A stretch of DNA of 64,000 nt, taken from assembly GCF_001194135.2 (NCBI RefSeq), contig NC_068983.1, positions 111,817,822 through 111,881,821 on the forward strand. The letters are read 5' to 3'. The DNA is from Octopus bimaculoides. Taxonomy: Eukaryota. How positions within the stretch are numbered: position 1 is the stretch's first letter; each line of letters starts with the position of its first letter. Made by a program: the position numbers and the translations under genes. The notes beneath the pieces are model-generated. The model saw only the letters and a list, made by a program, of their open reading frames with translations. It did not search any database and was not told the DNA's origin. Shown piece after piece: positions 3,291-51,306 of this stretch.

Positions 3291-3691
3291 TTGTTGTTGT
3301 TGTTGTTGTTGTTGGCACTCCATCACTTACGATGTTGAGGGTTCCAGTTGATCCGATCAACGGAACAGCCTGCTCGTGAAATTAACCTGCAAGTGGCTGA
3401 GCACTCCACTGACACGTGTACCCTTAACGTAGTTCTCGGGGATATTCAGCGTGACACAGTGTGACAAGGCTGGCCCTTTGAATTACAGGCACAACAGGAA
3501 CAGGAAGTAAGAGTGAGAGAAAATTGTGGTGAAAGAGTACAGCAGGGTTCGCCACCATCCCCTGCCAGAGCCTCGTGGAGCTTTAGGTGTTTTCGCTCAA
3601 TAAACACTCACAAAGCCTGGTCTGGGAATCGAAACCGCAATCCTATGACCGTGAGTCTGCTGCCCTAACCACTGAGCCATTGCGCCTCCAC
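3291..3691 (-). mobile_element. tRNA-derived SINE family A, full length, (CAA)n tail
   Basis: Minus head gtggaggcgcaatggctcagtggttagggcagc...ggtttcgattccc (A/B boxes); three copies in the window. Confidence 0.92.
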
Positions 3692-8539: not shown

Positions 8540-8790
8540 AAATGAGATATTCAAGATTATGTTAGAAGCAACTGAGAAAGACTGATTTCAGTTGCCAGAG
8601 AAGAGGAGAAAGAAGCTGTAGAGACGGCAATGGAATACAAGAAAAGAAGAAAACAGGAACAAGAAAGAAGCATCTGGAGTAAAGAACTATATGGTCAGCA
8701 TCTCAGGCAAACACAGAACGTTACAGCAGAGGAGTCTTGGTTGTGGCTGGCAAACGAAGAAAGCAATAGGACTCATAATGGCTGCTCAAA
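8540..8790 (+). pseudogene. R4/Dong-type non-LTR retrotransposon C-terminal remnant
   Basis: ORF 8630: WSKELYGQHLRQ...ESWLWL matches the K.LHGQ..RQ...SW.WL motif; follows an (AAT/GAT)n tract. Confidence 0.7.
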
Positions 8791-8869
8791 TATAGGAATG
8801 AAAAGGTACTTATTTATTACAGAAGACTGGATAGTGTAGCTTGTGAACAAACACGAAAGCAGCAAAAAC

Positions 8870-9625
8870 TCCTCACTCAGTTATCAACGAAGCATGTCAA
8901 TTTGTAAAGGAACTTGGCATTAACCCTGAATTGAATGAAGAACTAGAAGCCACTACTATAAAACACAAACTGCTAAAAAGAATGGGCAGAAACAACTTAA
9001 GGAATGGTGCAGCCAAGAGTCTCTGCATTGACAATATATTTTTCAAAACGAAAATGCTGATGTTGACTAAGAAACAACCTATAAATGGCCGAGGAATTCA
9101 GGATTGAAAGCAATACTGAAAGTTTCATTCTGGTGGCACAAGTTCAAAGCCTGTTTACCAGAAAACACCAGGCAAATATTCTTAAAAATGGTGCAGACCC
9201 AAAAATGCAGATTCTGCATCGAATTTGATGAGCCAATAGACCATTTTATTTTGTGGTCTCTTGTGCTAACATCAAGCTGATATTAAAATCACAATAGGGT
9301 AGAACAATTTTTACATTAGAAAATATGCAAGCACTACTAAATCGACACTCTTGCTAACTTGTAAGAATATCATCTCAAGCCAATGGCTGAAGGTGAAAAT
9401 GTAAAGATTTGGGATTTTCCTGTCAACACTGACAGAACAATGCAGGTCAATTGACCAGATACAACGATTAAAGAAAGTTAAAGACATTTGGTAAACTGAT
9501 AGATAAAATTATCTCCACTAATAAGATTATATCCATCTAGGAATTTGGCAGGATCAGTATATATAGAGATCTGAAAATTGAAATATAAAAGATGTAGCTT
9601 CTTAAGGTAAAAATTGTATGTACCT
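8870..9625 (+). pseudogene. R4/Dong-type element: zinc knuckle and restriction-like endonuclease remnant
   Basis: Broken frames give QANILKNGADP.CRFC, WDFPVNTDRT.Q...PD and YRDLKIEI. Confidence 0.8.
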
Positions 9626-10520: not shown

Positions 10521-11674
10521 AGAATAACAAAAGAAATGGAAGAAAATATTTAAAGCAAACTGTACACTCTCTCTGAAAAAGCATATCAGAACATGTTTTC
10601 CAAACTGGACGAAACATTAGGAGAAGTGTATGGAGAATATTATTTTGAAGGAAACAAATCTGCTTAATTTGTAAGTGAAGCAATAGATTTATTTCCTTCA
10701 AGTGATTGATTCATTTTGGACAGAACTTGTATGCTGGCAGCTGAGAATAATGTCAGCACATCAGCTGAAATAGAGAAAAGGTATGAAATGTAAGACAAAA
10801 TACAGATAACAAAGTAAAACTCAAAGAAGTCTTGACAGGGTTTAACTAATTAGATAGACCAACTGTAGTTGGAAAGCAACTATTTTATAATTACTGTGTA
10901 AGGCCAGAGTTTATCCTCAAGAAATTACCTCAAAATTATAGACACTCAAGGAGCAAACAGTAAATTCAGTGAAGACCAAAAACCAATTACTTGGCTTAGG
11001 TTGTACAGTTATTTCCAAGTCAATATTTTCAAATATTTATAACTGAATAAGATGTCACTATATTTGCTTTTGCTGTTGTTATTGTGTAGCATCAAATCAA
11101 TTCTTATTGAACAAAGCATGCCATGATCAAAGGCATTCTAGCAGTGACTATCCTGTCTTGTCTTCAGGCACAGTGCATCCAGTATATCCTTCCATTTTAA
11201 AGATTGTAGGCTGTGATTCGAAAGAGATTTGGCAGTTATTTCTAGCAGGATGAGTGCTCACATAGAGATTCCTTTGTTGTTTAGTCCCAAGGCAAAACTG
11301 GTCCAGTATACCTATCATAAAAAGTTTTAAAGCTCTAAATATATTCATTTTTTCTTGTTGCTGATGTTTGACCTCAAGTTAGCCCTCATCAAGCAGACTT
11401 TTAACAAAGGCATTACAGCCATGAGTATGTCATCTTTTATTCATATCTAGAAAGGCTTTGTTTAATTTATCCTTTTTTTTTTTAAGGTGAAGGGAGGAAT
11501 TTGAAGGGTTGCTATCTCTAACAGATTGAGTGACCACATAAAAGTTCTTGTGTTGGCTTACACTCATCTTTTTTTCAGACAATGTGTCTAGGACAAGATT
11601 ATTGTTGTAGGGAATTAGTAATAATGGTACACCCCACCCATGTGATGAATGGAATAACCTAGTCACCATAAGTA

Positions 11675-11737
11675 AAGAGAAGTACGTGAAGTACAAGAGA
11701 AGTACGTGAAGTACAAGAGAAGTACGTGAAGTACAAG
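11675..11737. repeat. Perfect 20-bp tandem repeat x3 (aagagaagtacgtgaagtac)
   Basis: Direct reading; ends 4 bp before the 5' LTR. Confidence 0.95.
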
Positions 11738-11741
11738 TGAA

Positions 11742-11844
11742 TGTAGCAGGCGGCCAGAGATAGTCATGTCTTTAGTGGTTTCATTTTGTATACTGTATAC
11801 CGAAGTGGACATTATAACAATCCAATATCGTAAGGATTATAACA
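11742..11844 (+). repeat. 5' LTR (103 bp)
   Basis: tgtagcagg...tataaca; 14 mismatches in 103 versus 17463-17565 by eye. Confidence 0.85.
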
Positions 11845-11857
11845 GTGGTGACAAGGA
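11845..11857 (+). promoter_or_regulatory. Primer-binding site
   Basis: gTGGtgacaagga immediately after the LTR CA end, similar to TGGCGACGAG-type PBS. Confidence 0.7.
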
Positions 11858-12016
11858 TTTAAATACCTTACATGGAACTGATAAACTCCATGAAGATTTA
11901 AACGATTCACGAAGAATTAATAAACTCGACGAGGATTTGAACAACTCATGAAGAGTTAACAAAGTCACAAAAGTTTTTGTTGTATGAATTTTATGAAAAA
12001 TAAAATCGTAAAATTA

Positions 12017-13290
12017 TGGAAAATTTGTTGGCTGGTTTGCTCAAGTTGTAAAAGCAGCAACAACAGCAACTGAAAGAATTACAGCAGCAGCTACAACTTC
12101 AAGAATAACAGCTGAAGCAATAACAACTGAAGGGAAGAAGAAGAACAACAATAGTTACTATTTCAGCAACAAATACTGCAATTAATGAAATTGTCAGGAA
12201 ATTCGATGGAAGAGTGTAGGACGAAAGTTGCGAATGAATGTAACCGCATGAATGAGATGAAGGACTCATCTCAGTTATCAGTGGCGAGGCGGGGCACGTG
12301 GGGTCCGTGCTAAACCCGCCTTACCACTCCATCCGTAATGTCTTCCGGTGTGTCTTATCATTCAATTTTATTCCGATTTCATTGTCCAAAATTTTTTAAT
12401 GCATGTTTCTGTAAATTCATCCCTTTCATCTGACCCCAAATCTATGTCGCCCCTTGTGGGTAAGAAAAAATTAGAAATTAGAAATTCAGAAAAGTGTTCT
12501 CACCAGACTATGTCATGAACTCCATAAGAAAGTTCAAATGCGAACCTGACGACGCATACTACAGAAGATATGAGCAAATCTTCGAGAAACAATGTAAAGA
12601 TTAGGATGATGAGATGAAAACGCACTTAATCTTGAGAAAACTGGTGGCAACAGAACATGAACGATACAGTAGTTATAAGCTCCCAAGAAAACGTTTGGAC
12701 ATAAACTTTAATGACACAATAGATATATTATGTAAAATGTTCAGTGGAAAAAGCTCACTGTTCAACACACATTGGAAGTGTCTGAAAATAGAAAAAACAA
12801 CGACGAGGACTACATCACATATGCTGATTGAGTAAACAGGGAATGCGAGAAGTTTAAGCTGAATGAATTAATGCAGATGTGTTCAAATGCTTGATTTTTA
12901 CACAGGGACTTACTGCCGAAAATGACACAGAATTTAGAACTAGAATTCTCGCAAAGCTGGAAAAAAAGCCAGGATATAACCCTATAGAAAGTGTCAGAAG
13001 AATGTGAAGGGATAGTTAAATTAAGACATGACACAGAGGAAATCAAGCAGAAATATTGTTTCCAAGTAAGGTAAGTGCGAAACAATCAGAATAGAGATTT
13101 TCTAAAAGACATGACAAAAATCAAGAAATAAGCCAATGTTTTGCATGTGGAAGTATACAACTGAGGAAAAATTTTCCATTTAAAAAAGTGGAGTGTTTTC
13201 ATTGTGGAAATATAGGACATAGAAAGATGCTCTGTAGAATGAAGATGACAAAACGTCAAAATAAAGGAAAAAGAATAAATAGTATGTCAT
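12017..13290 (+). pseudogene. Gypsy gag remnant with CCHC knuckles, interrupted by an insertion at about 12205-12490
   Basis: Q-rich N-terminus, VFSPDYVMNSIRKF, FKLNELNADVFKCLIFTQGL, CFACG and CFHCGNIGHRKMLC. Confidence 0.8.
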
Positions 13291-13319
13291 CAGAAGAAAT
13301 TGGCAATATAACGATGAAA

Positions 13320-13560
13320 AAATTCATGAAGGTGAAAATCAGAAATACAAGTGTTAAAATGCAGTTGGACACTGGTACTGATATCACCATTATAAACGAA
13401 AAATTTAGAAATATGTCAGTAAGTCAAAATAAAATTGAAAAAGGTAGCATATGGTGTTACAGGAAAAAGATTATATTTTTTCAGTGAATTCATATGTACT
13501 GTAACATTTCATGGTCAAACGAAAAAGGTAAAGATATATGTGTTAAAAAGTTCACATAAT
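13320..13560 (+). pseudogene. Gypsy aspartic protease remnant
   Basis: VKMQLDTGTDITIINEK (DTG catalytic motif). Confidence 0.85.
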
Positions 13561-13744
13561 CTATTCATCACAGAGTGGATGGAACTATTAAAATTGTGGA
13601 ATATGCCCATAAGTGTGGAAATATAGTCAGTCCAGTCGAAGATTTGAATGCAGCTGAAGGACTAAAAACTAAAAATTGCACTAAAACAGATTGAAACACT
13701 TGTATGAAAGCCAAAACGAAATAAAAAATTGCCCATGATAAAAA

Positions 13745-13916
13745 GTAGATGTTCGGTGGTTGAGACTTACACATCGATTTCACTGGTCTTTTAAATGGTT
13801 CTTATTACTTTCAAAATGGCCAGAAATGTTTAAGTGTAAAAAGCCAAACCTTCTCAATGGTGATAAATTGTTTGCACGAATTGTTTGCAAGATTTGGCAT
13901 CCCAGACAAGATAGTG
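13745..13916 (+). pseudogene. Gypsy integrase core fragment (truncated)
   Basis: LHIDFTGLLNG, SKWPE and RFGIPDKIV; stops before SDNG. Confidence 0.75.
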
Positions 13917-14043
13917 CTTTGAAGAGAGCGTTCAGTTTGTTTGATTTGTATTTTGTTGAAAATTGTTTGAAGAATTGTTGTTGAAATATTATTGTTAATA
14001 TTTATTGTTGAAGATTGTTTTCCTACCCAATTTGGGTATGAAA

Positions 14044-15337
14044 GCAGGAATGTGTGCTGCGGCAGCAGGTAAAAGCCTGTCTGCTAATGCAATGCAAATG
14101 GAAGAAATTCACATTTAGAAAAATTTAAGAATTTATTCAAAAAGGAAGGAGATTGTTTGAAAATAACACCGCCTAAAGACGTAGTCGAACGAGCTGAAAA
14201 GAAAATTATTGTATACAGAACGCTTAATGTCGAAACAAAGAAGATTGAAATAGCAGAAATTGAAGAGATAGAGCAGTGCCTAAGTGAAGTTAAGCCATTA
14301 GCAACATTTTACGCAAGAGGTAGAAAGTATGGCATGGTGGAGGTACACTTTACAAGTGAGGAGAAGGCAAAAAAGCACTCCACTGTACCTTTAAGAACGG
14401 CTAGGTGGGCACTTTTGCCTACCTATTGTAGAAGAAGAGCCGCACGAGTAAGGATTGGCCGAGTGCCTCTTGAAATAGCCCCAGAGTGGCTGGTTACAGC
14501 CATTATTTATAACTGCAAAGATGCAGTGGAAGTTCTAAAGGTTGAAAAGTCACAAGAGATCAACTGGTGGGGTTTTGGTGTAGAGGTACTTATCCATATA
14601 ACCCTGCCAGATCTGCATAACATAGCCGAAGCATTGGTGCTCCTCGATGAAACACGACTGAAAGTTGTGGTGGAGGGGAGACCACCAATATGTTACAGAT
14701 GTAAAAGTAGGGGACACATGCAAACAAAGTGTCCCTAAGAGAAGTACCTGGTGAAGAATTAGAAGGGTGTAACGATGCAGTAAGAGAGGAAGAAGAGGAA
14801 AAAGTGGAAGAAAAGGAGGAAGAAATAACTGTTGATAGAAAGTGAGCGCGTGTGGAATGCCCACCAAAAAGCCTGAAAAAAAAAAGAAAGGTAAAAAGAA
14901 AATAATGGAGGAAATGAAAACGACAGTGTCGAACCCGAGAATCAGAGCAAGCAGTGACTAGAATAGAAGAGGAAGATGACATCAGACTTGAGCAGTGGAA
15001 GGAGAGAGTGGCATTTCAAACAGAATATGCAGCATGAGTAGGGAGACCAAAAGGAAAGAATTTAAAATTGTTGGTGTTTTACATGAGGGAGATGGAAGTA
15101 GAAAAGAGGTTGGCAAAAACAAAGGGATTAATACGAATTAAATTGGATTCAAATATGTTCCATAGAGATCAGAAAGTAGTGTTATTGGACAAAGATTGAA
15201 TGGAAAGAATGGTAGAGTTGTTTCCTAGTAGTATCATGGGAACAGGAGTATATGTCCATTATGAGAGTCTGCCAAATGTTGTTGAACTGGAAGATTTGAT
15301 GGAGCTTATAACAGACGAGAAATTTAAAAACGATTAA
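14044..15337 (+). pseudogene. ORF1/Gag-like unit A: RRM-like region, CCHC knuckle, E/K linker, unknown C-terminal domain
   Basis: Open 14157-14738 (193 aa) ending VVVEGRPPICYRCKSRGHMQTKCP; frameshifted acidic tail; C-terminus IRIKLDSN...LLDKD...GVYVHYESLPNVVE. Confidence 0.75.
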
Positions 15338-15717
15338 AAACTGTATAAAAGAATAGTCAAATAAAACTGCAAGCTTTGGGGGGCTCGTAAGCCATTTCAT
15401 CCTTTCATTTTAAATAATTCATGTCATCGTTCATTAAATGTAACCCACGTTTTGTATTGTATTGTCTGTTCTTGTAATGTCCCCCTCTGTGTTGTAGCCA
15501 TAGTGCCAAATAAAGAAATGAGTATGTAGTAGGTAGTGAGAGATATTTTTACCAATTGGAGTTAATTTTGTTGTGTTTTTTTGATTGCTGTTAAGCATAA
15601 GTCACCTTGTTAAATATTTGTTGAAGGTCTCCCATCATGGGTGTACCCAAGATTATTGATTGTTACTGTTGAAATTGCTGTTACTGTTATTGTTGAATTG
15701 CTTGTTTTCATCCCATT

Positions 15718-17140
15718 GTGGGAAAGATGGAGAAAGTGCCAGCAGGAGGCCACAGTTATGCAGCAGCAACTGGTAAAGGAATAGAAGTTGAAACCTTGGA
15801 GGTGCGGGAAGTAAAATTTGAGCCGAGGAGGATGAAAGAATGCGAGAAACTATTGAAAAAGAAGGGAAACACATTGAGACTAACACAGCCTGAGGAACTC
15901 ATAAGTAGTGTAACCAAGAGAACAGTGATTTTTAAAACCCTGAAGGTGTCGAGTAGGAAGATCAAAATAGCAACAATTGAGGCTATTAAGAATTGCTTGA
16001 AGGACATTAAGAAACTCATCATGTTCATCACACGTGAAAGGTATGGCACGATGGAGGATGAAGCAATGAAGCACTCCACAGAAGCCATAAGAACGGAATA
16101 ATGGGTACTCTTGCCGATGTACTGTCACAAGCATGTTGCCAGGGTGAGAGCTGGCAAAGTGCCCCCAGAGTTAAAGGAAACATGGCTGATGGCAGCCATA
16201 ATGCTTAACATGCAGGAGGATGCCAAGATACTCAAGGCAACGAGAACCAAAAGGTTGAATTATTGGCGGTATGGCATAGAGATGGCCATACAAGTGAGTT
16301 TGGAATACCTCAACAGACTGGCAGAAGAAATAGTTCTGCCCGAGGAAATAAGGCTGAGAGTGGTGGTGGAGGGTAGGCCTCCCATATGCTATTTATGTGG
16401 AGAAAAAGGCCACCTGAAGGTGACATGCCCCCAGAGAGAAGAGGAACAACAGATGGAACAGACTGTGGAGTAGGAGAATATGGACCAAGTGGTACACGTC
16501 GAGGTAAAGGAGACAAGAACAGCAGAGGAATTCATGGTAGTCAAAAAGAGAAAGAGAAGTGAAAGAGTAAGCTCTCTGTCAGAGAGGCAGAAAAAGAAAA
16601 AGGAAGTAGTTAAGGAGGTAGAGAAAGAGGTTGTGAAGGAAGTCAGAAGGAAGGAAGGTGAGAAGATGGTTGACAAGGAGATTGAAAAGGAGCTTGAAGA
16701 GGAGGAGGAGTTTTAGAAGGAGGAGACAGCAGGAAAGACACTGGTTATACCAGTGGAAGAAAAGGATTTAGGCAAACAACTGTATGAGGGTGAAATGGCG
16801 ACACTATTTAGAGTGGAGGAGGAAAAAGCAAAAGTACCAGAAGAGCAAGAAATGGAAAAACAAGCAAGGAAGGTGCAAAAATACCGATGAAATTTTGTGA
16901 CATACTCTAAAAATAAAGAAACTGGACAGAAAATAATGAAATTTAAGTCTATTATAAGGGTGAAGTTGCCCACAGATGTGTATACGGAGAATGTGAAGGC
17001 CATTGTGATCGACAAGGAGAGGTACAACAGGCTGAAAGATGTGTGGAAGAGGCATTGATCTGCCAGGATTTGTGGTGGAATTTGATGAATTGCCACCTGT
17101 GGTAGAACAGAAAGGTCTTGAACCTTTTATGAGATATTAA
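15718..17140 (+). pseudogene. ORF1/Gag-like unit B, paralog of unit A
   Basis: One frame from 15718 to about 17058 with four in-frame stops, then one late frameshift; SYAAA motif, VVVEGRPPICYLCGEKGHLKVTCP, IRVKLPTD...VIDKE...GFVVEFDELPPVVE. Confidence 0.8.
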
Positions 17141-17462
17141 AAACAAAAAAGTAAGTAAAATTGTTTTAAGTTAGAAAATAAAGGGAAAAAATAAGTAAAA
17201 TTGTTTTATTTTTAAAAAAGAGGAAAAAACGATTATAAAGGAAAAAAAAAACAGAGGAAAAAAATGAACGATTACAAACAGTGCATTTAAACATTCAAAT
17301 GGTACTGCATGAGAGTGGGGCTCATGCAGCCAATTCATTTTCATTATATAACATCAACGTTTTCATTTGTTTTATGTTTTTTTGTCCTCACTGTGGTGTT
17401 CTGTCTGTTCTTGCACTGTCCCCTCTGTGTAATGGATGTAGCGCCAAAATAAAGAAAGTGTA

Positions 17463-17565
17463 TGTAGTAGGTGGTTAGAGATAGTCATGTCTTTACTGGT
17501 TTTACTAAGTATACTGTATACTGAAGTGGGCATTATAAGAATCCAACATTGTAAGGATTATAACA
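17463..17565 (+). repeat. 3' LTR (103 bp)
   Basis: tgtagtagg...tataaca, preceded by purine-rich aaataaagaaag. Confidence 0.85.
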
Positions 17566-19199
17566 ATTATCCAATGTGCTCTCATTATTTAAGGTAAGGT
17601 TTTATTTGATGGCTATTTCACAGCTATTTCCAACAGACTAAGCAACCACATAATGGTTCTCTCATTGACTAAAGACTATGAAAATACTACCGAATTAAGA
17701 TAGATGACAAAAGGCTTAAACTCCAGGGGTATTCGTTCTGAATTTACAATGAGAGCATTGTACACCTATTTTTGGTATATTCATAAATATTAAGCTCATT
17801 CAGGAGCATAATCATAGATCATTATGAGAGACTAGTCTTTCTAAATCTTGTGATGAAATACTGAGGCACTGGTTCTGAAATAAAAGGGTTCACCTTACAG
17901 CTAATTGCATCATATGACACTGAATGGCAGCATAATAGAAATATGATAAAAATAAGGACTGAAAAAGAGCATCTTTCCACAAAGCACACATGCTGTGTTT
18001 GTCTTCATGATGGCATGTATATATGAAGTCTTGGAAACATTAAGAGGCATTTCATATCTGTATAAAAACTAATTTTGAGTTATTTAGAAGGCTAAAATGC
18101 AACTTCCATGTTGTAATCGCTTCGGTCTCAGATCAAGATTTGTACAACTCTGAAATATTGAAAATATTATACATAAAACTGATTTTGTTTACAATAACTT
18201 TTTTCTTGCAGGATTATGATATAATCTTGTCATAATTTGTAATGATTCACTTTCAGAAACAAAGATAAAGTTAATTTTAACTAATAATACACACACCTGT
18301 ACTACATTTAGAAACAAAGATTATATCTGTTTGGAGCTGTAGATGTAACAATATTCGCTGTTGTTTACAGCAGGTGATCTAAACATTATGTATGTTATAA
18401 TTTATCAATGTTGAAATACTGTCTAGTTACAGAAAAATACGACTGTTTAAGCATATTTTTTATTACCAAATCCATGCAGAGGTGATTTGTTGATAAAAAT
18501 GTAGTGAATCCTTTATATACAACAGTGAAAGTTTTGTGCTTTTACTAGAAGCAATCGTTTTTATTAGAAAGAATCATAGAGCACACCCAGTTATAATAGT
18601 AACTATAAGCCACTTATAAACACCAAAACGTTTTACTTAAAACTGAGCAAAATTCAACACTCTTCAACATTACTAACAAAGATTAAGTTAAGAAAATAAT
18701 TACTCTTTACTATATTACTTGAAATTATGCTGAGAAACTATCAGAACATAATGATTAAGAGATACAAGTAAAATGGATGCAATCCACATAAGTTGAGTTT
18801 TCTCCATTTCCACTGAGATTTTTCAAATATTTTTAGCACTTCAAGATGATTGCAAGAGACCTCTCCTAAATAAAAGAATTTTAAAACTGCATAATTATTA
18901 AATGTTGTTCCCTGTCCATTGTACCTTCATGACAGCGATTACTATCATAAGGAGACAGTGATGACTGTCATGAAGGTACAAGGATTAAAAACGTTTTTAT
19001 TCCTCCTCTTGTTATTATATTGCATATTCTGGAATACATATAATCCAAATTTTTAGAGCAAAAACAAAATTTTAATTTGTGCATTTTTAATGCACCCCAT
19101 TTCTGAAGTAGGGAAGAGCTACTCATTGGTATCCCACAAATCAATGTCAACTTGACCTTGAGGGCAAGTGCCCTCTTTCCACTCTCCTCCCTCAATCTA

Positions 19200-22583: not shown

Positions 22584-22664
22584 AAAACAATAATAATCAT
22601 GATAATGATGATGATGATGATGATGATGATGATAGAGCAAAAAAGTGGTACGTACATAAACAGT

Positions 22665-50290: not shown

Positions 50291-51105
50291 CATTATGGTT
50301 TCTTTTCTTTAATTGATGAGGGATAATTTGAGCAGAATTTGGCTGCCATCTCTAGCAGTTTATTCAAATTTTCTCGTTGATTTGTGTTGCGCACAAGAGA
50401 ATAAAGTGGGTGTAATGAAACAGGATAATTCTGTAGTGATCAAAAAATTTCAATACGGCCAAAGGAATACTAAGAATTATTCTAATATTTCAACATTCAA
50501 AGGAATGTTAGAATACATTGTAATATACTTCAATATTTCCATATACCAAAGAAACTTTCTGTCTAGTTCCACACAGAAGTAATAAGAGCATTAACTTTAT
50601 AATGCTTATTGTTAATAATTCTTGATGCTTCAAATACTACATTCTCTTGGGAAGAAAACAACAGAATTGAAAACTTGGATAAACTCTAAAGATTCTTTTC
50701 GTTTGAACAACATTATTGCATGCAAGTAATTATAATATCTGACAGTTGTAGCTGAATTATTGACATTTGAAAAATTTATATATACACGTGTGTGTGTGTG
50801 TGTGTGTGTGTTAAAATTTATGTTTTTGGCATAAAAAATATGCTCCTTACTTTCTTAAATAAGCTAAAAAAAAGTTTGCTAAATAATTCTTTTTATGTAT
50901 ATTGATAATTTATGTTTTGTAAGGTTAACAGACTGTTAATGTTGCTACTCATACCATTATTCTTTGTTGTTGTTCTTCTTGTTGTGATCATTGATATTTC
51001 TCACTATTTTCTTGTCTACTATTTATCCTTCAATTTATGTATTTCATAAAGGTTGAATAGGACAAGAAAGATTGTTGAAGTTAATGCAAAGACATATATA
51101 TGCAC

Positions 51106-51264
51106 AGAAGTAGCTGTGTGGTAAGTAGCTTGCTAACCAACCGCATGGTTATGGGTTTAGTCCCACTGTGCGGCACTTTGGGCAAGTGTCTTCTACTATA
51201 GCCTCAGACTGACCAAAGACTCATTAGTGGATTTGGTGGACGGAAACTGAAAGACGCCTGTCAC

Positions 51265-51306
<42 letters not shown>
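51106..51306 (+). mobile_element. SINE family B 5' half running into a gap
   Basis: Head plus ggatttggtggacggaaactgaaag. Confidence 0.85.

Follow-up and report, generated by a model that had tools for sequence, protein, structure and literature searches.

Tx1-related ORF1-only retroelements in a stack at the U3/R border of an octopus gypsy element and in other repeats

The locus

The window analysed here is a stretch of 64,000 nucleotides from Octopus bimaculoides (contig NC_068983.1, forward-strand positions 111,817,822 to 111,881,821), and our subject is a pair of head-to-tail units within it, A and B, each with one open reading frame (ORF) resembling the first ORF (ORF1) of a long interspersed element (LINE) and lying in the remains of a long terminal repeat (LTR) retrotransposon. 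Both are hosted by a single gypsy insertion on the plus strand (11603-17565), which has a 5-bp ATTAT target duplication on either side (11598-11602, identical to 17566-17570). Its 5' LTR (11603-11844, 242 bp) is empty of units and consists of a U3 that starts from TGTTG and agrees with other empty copies of the family, a decayed TATA-like box at about 11667-11676, three 20-nt repeats, and an R-U5 ending in TAACA; what was earlier taken for a 103-bp LTR is merely the R-U5 portion of this repeat. The 20-nt unit between TATA box and R occurs three times in the window (11678-11737) and once in other family members. A sequence resembling a primer-binding site (PBS), TGGTGACAAGG (11846-11856), is present at the same position in other family copies, and is followed by a decayed gag, zinc knuckle, aspartyl protease and short integrase fragment (12452-13916), without reverse transcriptase (RT) or RNase H; the zf-CCHC and protease matches here are weak and below cut-off, and the integrase motif was recognised by eye.

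The 3' part of the element comprises unit A (13917-15519), which lacks a few tens of leader bases; the upstream copy of a target duplication corresponding to the start of R (15520-15534), with host-like similarity continuing to 15545; unit B (15535-17457), of a different subfamily; and the R-U5 of the 3' LTR (17458-17565), whose first 15 nt (17458-17472) are the duplication's downstream copy. The two copies are identical at 14 of 15 nt; behind each unit, 4-5 nt past its AATAAA, the opening 15 nt of R are repeated. The places given for the units in the preliminary description hold, except that the last 5 nt it assigned to each belong to this 15-nt duplication. Because the 3' LTR lacks its U3, and the element its polypurine tract and most of its pol, the units seem to occupy the position of env. 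The direct abutment of a 3'-LTR unit on pol, with U3 and polypurine tract missing, is seen both at 13916/13917 and at about 9790 of locus L039, and both joins may stem from deletion at insertion or from later deletion.

As had been noticed from the sequence, each unit has a T/G-rich leader, an ORF with an (S)YAAA-like start, the knuckle VVVEGRPPIC-X2-C-X4-H-X4-C, an E/K-rich linker and a C-terminal domain common to both (profile scores of 133 and 43 bits). Both tails end in AATAAAGAAA and are 82% identical over 84 nt, neither unit is followed by an endonuclease (EN) or RT, and the proteins share 46% identity over 132 aa and 42% over about 207 aa, the first estimate by eye having been about 40% over some 190 aa. 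Unit A has its ATG at 14038, the N-terminal frame at 14088-14738, the C-terminal domain at about 14990-15337 and AATAAA at 15509-15514; the corresponding features of unit B are an ATG at 15727, the knuckle at 16386-16433, the C-terminal domain at about 16845-17140 and AATAAA at 17448-17453. Stops and frameshifts interrupt both ORFs. Where other copies of this LTR family hold B-type units, those units are 77-84% identical to unit B in DNA. A joint duplication of unit B and R-U5 with locus L072 was considered and found unsupported, the R-U5 being 94% but the unit 78% identical.

The unit protein

An AlphaFold model of a natural frame contains two alpha-beta domains and the knuckle, with a mean pLDDT of 70 that rises to about 80-90 over the domains, and the best structural matches are tandem RRMs (IMP3 RRM12, E 2.7e-6). 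The unit protein is thus predicted to combine two RRMs with a CCHC knuckle, the latter detected as zf-CCHC in 14 of 15 aligned sequences. Pfam returned the knuckle only for the N-terminal part and nothing credible for the C-terminal domain, and matches in the Atlas comprised unnamed arthropod CCHC clusters and, as a lead only, ZCCHC3-type domains at 0.90. The C-terminal domain was modelled as a confident fold (pLDDT 81); Foldseek found no match to it at E 0.001, and the best VIA score, Z 5.2 to ferredoxin-like folds, is uninformative. Its profile matched two proteins in the protein database, one of them named, from O. bimaculoides, and did not match the C-termini of the ORF1s of the partner LINEs described below. 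Gene models of units are already present in protein databases as anonymous "CCHC-type" proteins.

Among ten subfamilies the median dN/dS is 0.13 (45 pairs, 22 measurable and 23 with saturated synonymous sites). The ORF is by this measure under purifying selection, so that it was still needed long after the loss of ORF2.

An abundant family with a defined insertion signature

Protein searches with A and B gave 8419 and 6094 first-look candidates and at least 150 scored matches each; the census is of 120 loci of 8-10 kb around the top matches on large contigs, with the best unit taken per locus. The ORF1-only element is 1.6-1.9 kb long in O. bimaculoides. The tail is reached within 1.7 kb in 71 loci, while 21 have the C-terminal domain without a detected tail, nine run into gaps and 19 are truncated. 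All 71 reach the tail without an ORF2; an ORF2 within 2.5 kb downstream and without an intervening tail is seen in three of the 120, and 46 are uninformative. At L043 and L190 the apparent ORF2 is a junction into a different LINE that carries its own ORF1; with L066 ambiguous, no clear case of a unit running into an ORF2 of its own exists among the 120. No run of six or more A residues occurs in the 30 nt after the tail in 101 of 105 tails. In the first 100 loci, frames opening with ATG attain at most 348 aa, and none extends to the end of the C-terminal domain; seeming open frames of 1300-1500 aa in unit matches proved to be assembly gaps.

A flanking duplication (score at least 11) is present in 37 of 82 testable units, versus 10 of 410 pairings with other loci and 1 of 410 shuffles, and is 14-18 nt long in 28 of the 37. 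Often, as at L058, L144 and L038, both copies have locus-private variants in common, which indicates that the duplication arose at insertion and not by joint amplification with the host. Stubs of the last 16-26 nt of a unit occur at the same insertion site (L033, L268), as expected of 5' truncation during target-primed reverse transcription. Four members of one young subfamily (L047, L133, L154, L051) have unrelated downstream flanks and no clear duplication, and this subfamily may be less site-specific.

Hosts and insertion sites

In the LTR family of the window, a unit tail is absent from 33 of the 34 other R-U5 matches, which come from 29 loci, and most of the matches lie behind an intact U3. 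At L172 the order is U3, duplication, B-type unit, duplication, U5, PBS and gag; a second LTR was sought there within 10 kb and none was found. The prevalence of unit-free copies argues that A and B were inserted at the U3/R border and are not a gypsy gene. Exact junction patterns were matched five times for this LTR and 11 times for a second one, and never by the reversed-pattern controls; a unit ORF lies upstream in three of the five and nine of the 11. The downstream flanks of units include six gypsy LTR families, with gag seen in five and a polypurine tract and PBS in one. Further hosts are a Penelope-like element, at its 3' end, two repeats that contain a hammerhead-like core, a short interspersed element (SINE) that we take to be of the tRNA type from its A and B boxes, other repeats and other units. 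Two singleton hosts that were checked are both repeats with at least 40 copies. Hence, the preliminary proposal of a non-autonomous ORF1-only LINE family targeting this LTR is upheld as to the family, and its targets turn out to be broader than this LTR.

A TATA motif starts 28-43 nt upstream of 17 of 29 unstacked sites, representing eight host families, versus 11 of 261 control windows. Gypsy LTRs show a spacing of 29-33 nt where it could be measured, and most sites in the hammerhead repeat one of 39-43 nt. As the textbook distance from TATA box to start is about 30 nt, the insertion sites in LTRs would lie at the transcription start. In several LTR families (L073-L100, L341-L346) the TATA box shares bases with a hexamer resembling a poly(A) signal, which implies that R is very short, roughly as long as the duplication. 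At L342 a different LINE-type tail, just upstream of position 1500 (match strand), occupies the same start-site position in a sixth LTR family.

The hammerhead motif was recognised by eye from its core and stems; Rfam reported no hammerhead at gathering score in 13 loci, nor at one site searched under relaxed settings, and for most copies the hammerhead fold was not recovered by single-strand folding. Penelope-type ORFs adjoin host repeats in four of nine loci having such ORFs, with a clear link for one host family only. Hammerheads are typically located in Penelope pseudo-LTRs (PMC8557442).

Host choice clusters on the unit tree: the tree requires 24 host changes against a mean of 34.8 when hosts are shuffled, and none of 500 shuffles was as low. 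One young subfamily is nevertheless found in four hosts without a common target sequence (L031/L032, L035, L037, L040). At one hammerhead repeat (L038, L044, L053, L054, L058, L062, L144, L228, L304), AATAAAGAGAA forms the end of all units, which come from several subfamilies, and of the members of one LINE family, which indicates that the last few bases track the target and not the ORF tree. When three raw RNA runs were compared with a related copy, 74-163 reads on both strands were recovered, mostly from other copies; an RNA index lookup for unit B listed no dataset as containing it.

Partner LINEs

A sample of LINEs was assembled through a zf-RVT search (at least 150 scored matches). Nine of 20 long LINE loci have, ahead of ORF2, an ORF1 that shares about 27-39% identity with that of the units. 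Natural frames of ORF2 in L243, L246 and L249 match PF03372, PF00078 and PF13966 at scores that exceed or approach the cut-off; these LINEs thus encode an APE endonuclease, RT and zf-RVT (EN-RT-zfRVT) and are Tx1-like in architecture. Among the 120 RT matches listed, the sole informative name is that of a "transposon TX1" protein from an alligator, at 40% identity. In a 61-row tree a branch with SH-aLRT support of 98 parts 48 host-assigned units from nine partner ORF1s; four divergent rows are ungrouped, and two of these are nearest to database proteins that match the C-terminal domain, one of them weakly. Related ORF1 proteins are present in O. vulgaris, O. sinensis and Argonauta.

The LINEs resemble the units at their 3' ends as well, 41 of 65 having a recognisable tail of the common design, namely a GTCC-rich stretch, a hairpin-like segment and AATAAA. 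Ten of these 41 tails adjoin hosts used by units, seven of them at one hammerhead-bearing repeat and two at the same nucleotide offset as units. The LINEs stack with one another and with units (L252, L233), the full-length LINE L259 is flanked by a duplication of 16-17 bp inside a Penelope-like end, and two LINE-type tails are found at the site used in the LTR of the window (L262, L265). Within the gag of the host gypsy itself lies a 3' untranslated region (UTR) fragment of a Tx1-like LINE of the full-length type (12268-12470, plus strand), 77-89% identical to the 3' UTRs of L248, L257 and L259; its location away from any start site indicates that the partner LINEs are not restricted to promoters. 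Many full-length-type LINEs have their ends 10-35 nt ahead of a hammerhead-like core, in short repeats of several families (L211, L228, L234, L282, L287, L291, L292, L304; further cases at L222, L227, L238, L286, L289, L296, L305), and there may be a LINE lineage aimed at ribozyme-bearing, Penelope-like repeats.

Proposed origin and mode of insertion

Taken together, these observations make it probable that A and B are separate insertions of a Tx1-related ORF1-only element, stacked at the U3/R border of the host LTR. They were likely placed there by the EN and RT of full-length partner LINEs, and the host's promoter likely drives transcription of units. In place of the LINE/LTR hybrid system suggested in the preliminary description, we thus envisage a LINE-derived parasite of LTRs.

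We propose that RNA from the host promoter would start in the upstream duplication and read through the unit, to be cut just beyond the AATAAA of the unit and hence inside the downstream duplication, RNA cleavage 10-30 nt past AATAAA being the established spacing. The unit's own ORF1p would coat the unit RNA, which would explain why its gene has been kept. The ORF2p of a partner would then nick an empty copy of the host repeat near its transcription start, and the host-derived RNA end would likely pair with the nicked strand of the target. Such pairing would let copying begin ahead of any poly(A) and would tend to return subfamilies to the same host, and the recreation of the target on insertion would allow copies to stack. 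At the 5' junction one subfamily keeps the same host-like base in five of five copies, three of which have another base in the downstream host copy; this retained base and the clustering of hosts on the unit tree fit pairing between RNA and target.

Several points weigh against this interpretation. The transcription start is placed by TATA spacing, the TATA motif and its distance window were fixed after the insertion-site data had been seen, the hammerhead repeat alone supplies eight of the 17 TATA cases, and 12 of the 29 sites, including the SINE and other non-TATA hosts, have no TATA motif at that distance. No piles of read starts or read ends appeared in the three RNA runs, which are of low depth. 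The duplication falls below threshold in 45 of the 82 units. The separation of units in the ORF1 tree is partly built in, as likeness to A and B was the basis on which units were chosen, and two of the three discordant junctions have near-identical flanks and may be one event. L066 is ambiguous and may be a case in which a unit-type ORF1 has an endonuclease behind it. Upstream of the L262 and L265 tails no ORF2 was detected, so that no full-length partner has been seen at the site used in the window.

A possible, though doubtful, alternative is that the same element finds its site by position, with ORF1p or the partner ORF2p binding the TATA-bound transcription complex and cutting at the start. 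The occurrence of one young subfamily in four unrelated hosts speaks against a pure reading of sequence and keeps this alternative in play, and unrelated LTR families are struck 29-33 nt behind the TATA box. In the stack at L043 the TATA-proximal copy has the better-matching duplication pair, and the ORF has been conserved after the loss of ORF2 with a C-terminal domain unmatched in partner ORF1s. Recognition by position fits less well with the longer spacing in the hammerhead repeat, with hosts lacking a TATA box and with sites about 6, 13 and 43 nt inside the SINE. The fidelity of subfamilies to hosts suits recognition of sequence, and all identifiable hosts are repeats with no gene promoter seen among them, although selection could purge such insertions. 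Tentatively, then, the Tx1-like LINEs and their ORF1-only dependants might read RNA polymerase II starts by position and act as promoter-stealing hyperparasites that silence gypsy and Penelope-like elements.

It is improbable that the gypsy enzymes themselves move the unit, through an RNA with R at both ends and a first-strand transfer that yields U3-R-unit-R-U5. The duplication is located where a short R is expected, the host AATAAA or AGTAAA overlaps the TATA box, poly(A) is lacking, and L039 has units in both of its LTRs. However, those two units differ (84% and 67% identical), only one LTR is filled in the window, short 5'-truncated stubs exist, and a duplication of the same kind (13-18 bp) occurs in a SINE, in non-LTR repeats and around a LINE with its own endonuclease.

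That the ORF is an extra gene of the gypsy lineage at the env position, as the preliminary description also allowed, is most improbable: the units of the window do lie between integrase fragment and R-U5 and B-type units recur in the LTR family, but in intact cases the unit stands between U3 and R, units occur in 5' LTRs before PBS and gag (L172, L035, L040), other family copies run from polypurine tract to U3 and R-U5 with no ORF, and the same ORF is found in many non-gypsy hosts. Equally remote is the view that these are common LINE copies, with truncations or internal deletions, whose arrival here was due to chance; although the ORF is that of a LINE ORF1 and L066 has an endonuclease downstream, copies were not found to continue into ORF2 and lie at random sites, but have a constant length with a conserved tail right behind ORF1, form deep subfamilies under selection and reuse identical nucleotide positions, as the exact junctions attest.

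The insertion of units between U3 and R predicts silencing of the host LTR, so that the family may shape retroelement activity in the octopus. If units are position-reading hyperparasites, each insertion takes over the host promoter and terminates the host transcript at its own AATAAA. The family adds a long-lived and abundant ORF1-only lineage outside mammals, makes it testable why an element without ORF2 keeps ORF1p under strong selection, and reveals a LINE system whose targets cluster at the inferred transcription starts of unrelated transposons and not in one sequence.

Other features of the window

Outside the gypsy element, a decayed frame at 8560-9500 (plus strand) has C-terminal motifs that by eye resemble those of non-LTR retrotransposons. 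Two dispersed repeat families of about 220-300 bp, one at 1631-1930, 3298-3597 and 25505-25804 and the other at 22631-22853, 45690-45912 and 51068-51290, are probably SINEs.

Comparison with known systems

HAL1 elements descend from mammalian L1, carry poly(A) tails and are not known to prefer particular sites. The HAL1 (half-L1) of mammals is described as a non-autonomous LINE derivative, with several origins, that encodes ORF1p only (PMC5753468). The octopus unit is likewise an ORF1-only LINE derivative: it encodes a homologue of a LINE ORF1p, lacks ORF2, shows selection on ORF1 as a family of its own and has duplications of variable length. It is not HAL1 proper, as 101 of 105 tails are without an A-run and the nearest ORF1s are those of octopus LINEs; its parent is a Tx1-like LINE with a predicted RRM-RRM-CCHC ORF1p, and it is directed to sites in repeats.

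Drosophila HeT-A is a Gag/ORF1-only element that forms head-to-tail arrays and depends on the RT of a partner, as the likewise stacked, ORF1-only octopus family probably does; HeT-A is added at chromosome ends with poly(A) and no known duplication, whereas the octopus family inserts internally with duplications of 14-18 bp.

LINEs of the Tx1 clade (Tx1, Keno, Tx1-Mar, Tx1-8_Crp, Tx1-4_AMi) have an APE endonuclease and prefer particular repeats, and the crocodilian Tx1-8_Crp and Tx1-4_AMi favour specific LTR retrotransposons (PMC4494074). The same source describes SINEU as a non-autonomous passenger with the same target, and proposes transcription from the flanking target (PMC4494074). The octopus passenger differs from SINEU in encoding a conserved protein, and its sites gather close to where many unrelated families are inferred to start transcription. 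In R1Bm and SART1, pairing of target-matching RNA with the nicked strand has been proposed (PMC7265360). The octopus elements share with R1Bm, SART1 and R2 the stacking on, or homing to, a recreated target; those elements belong to other clades, are autonomous and use one fixed target (rDNA or telomere). If the octopus site is read by pairing between RNA and target, the family would represent a natural case of self-reinforcing homing.

TRE5 of Dictyostelium and yeast Ty3 insert near tRNA genes, and in vitro data suggest that the ORF1p of TRE5-A binds TFIIIB (PMC5006619). The likeness to TRE5-A and Ty3 lies in position-specific insertion near a transcription start; the difference is that their targets are RNA polymerase III genes, whereas the octopus sites lie mostly behind transposon TATA boxes. 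Were the octopus site read from the transcription complex, it would be the polymerase II counterpart of the TRE5/Ty3 strategy. A preference for start sites has also been described for the Mu and P DNA transposons (PMC7337890).

A literature search, outside whose reach lay Repbase and the subscription journals, so that an entry there is possible, found no account of the octopus family, nor of a LINE that seeks out the start sites of other transposons; a study of octopus LINEs (PMC9115989) does not mention Tx1 in its main text. We conclude that the family is a HAL1-like derivative of target-choosing Tx1-like LINEs, and that the new part of the system is its targeting of start sites, for which borrowing of the host promoter and pairing of the RNA end with the target would offer a mechanism.

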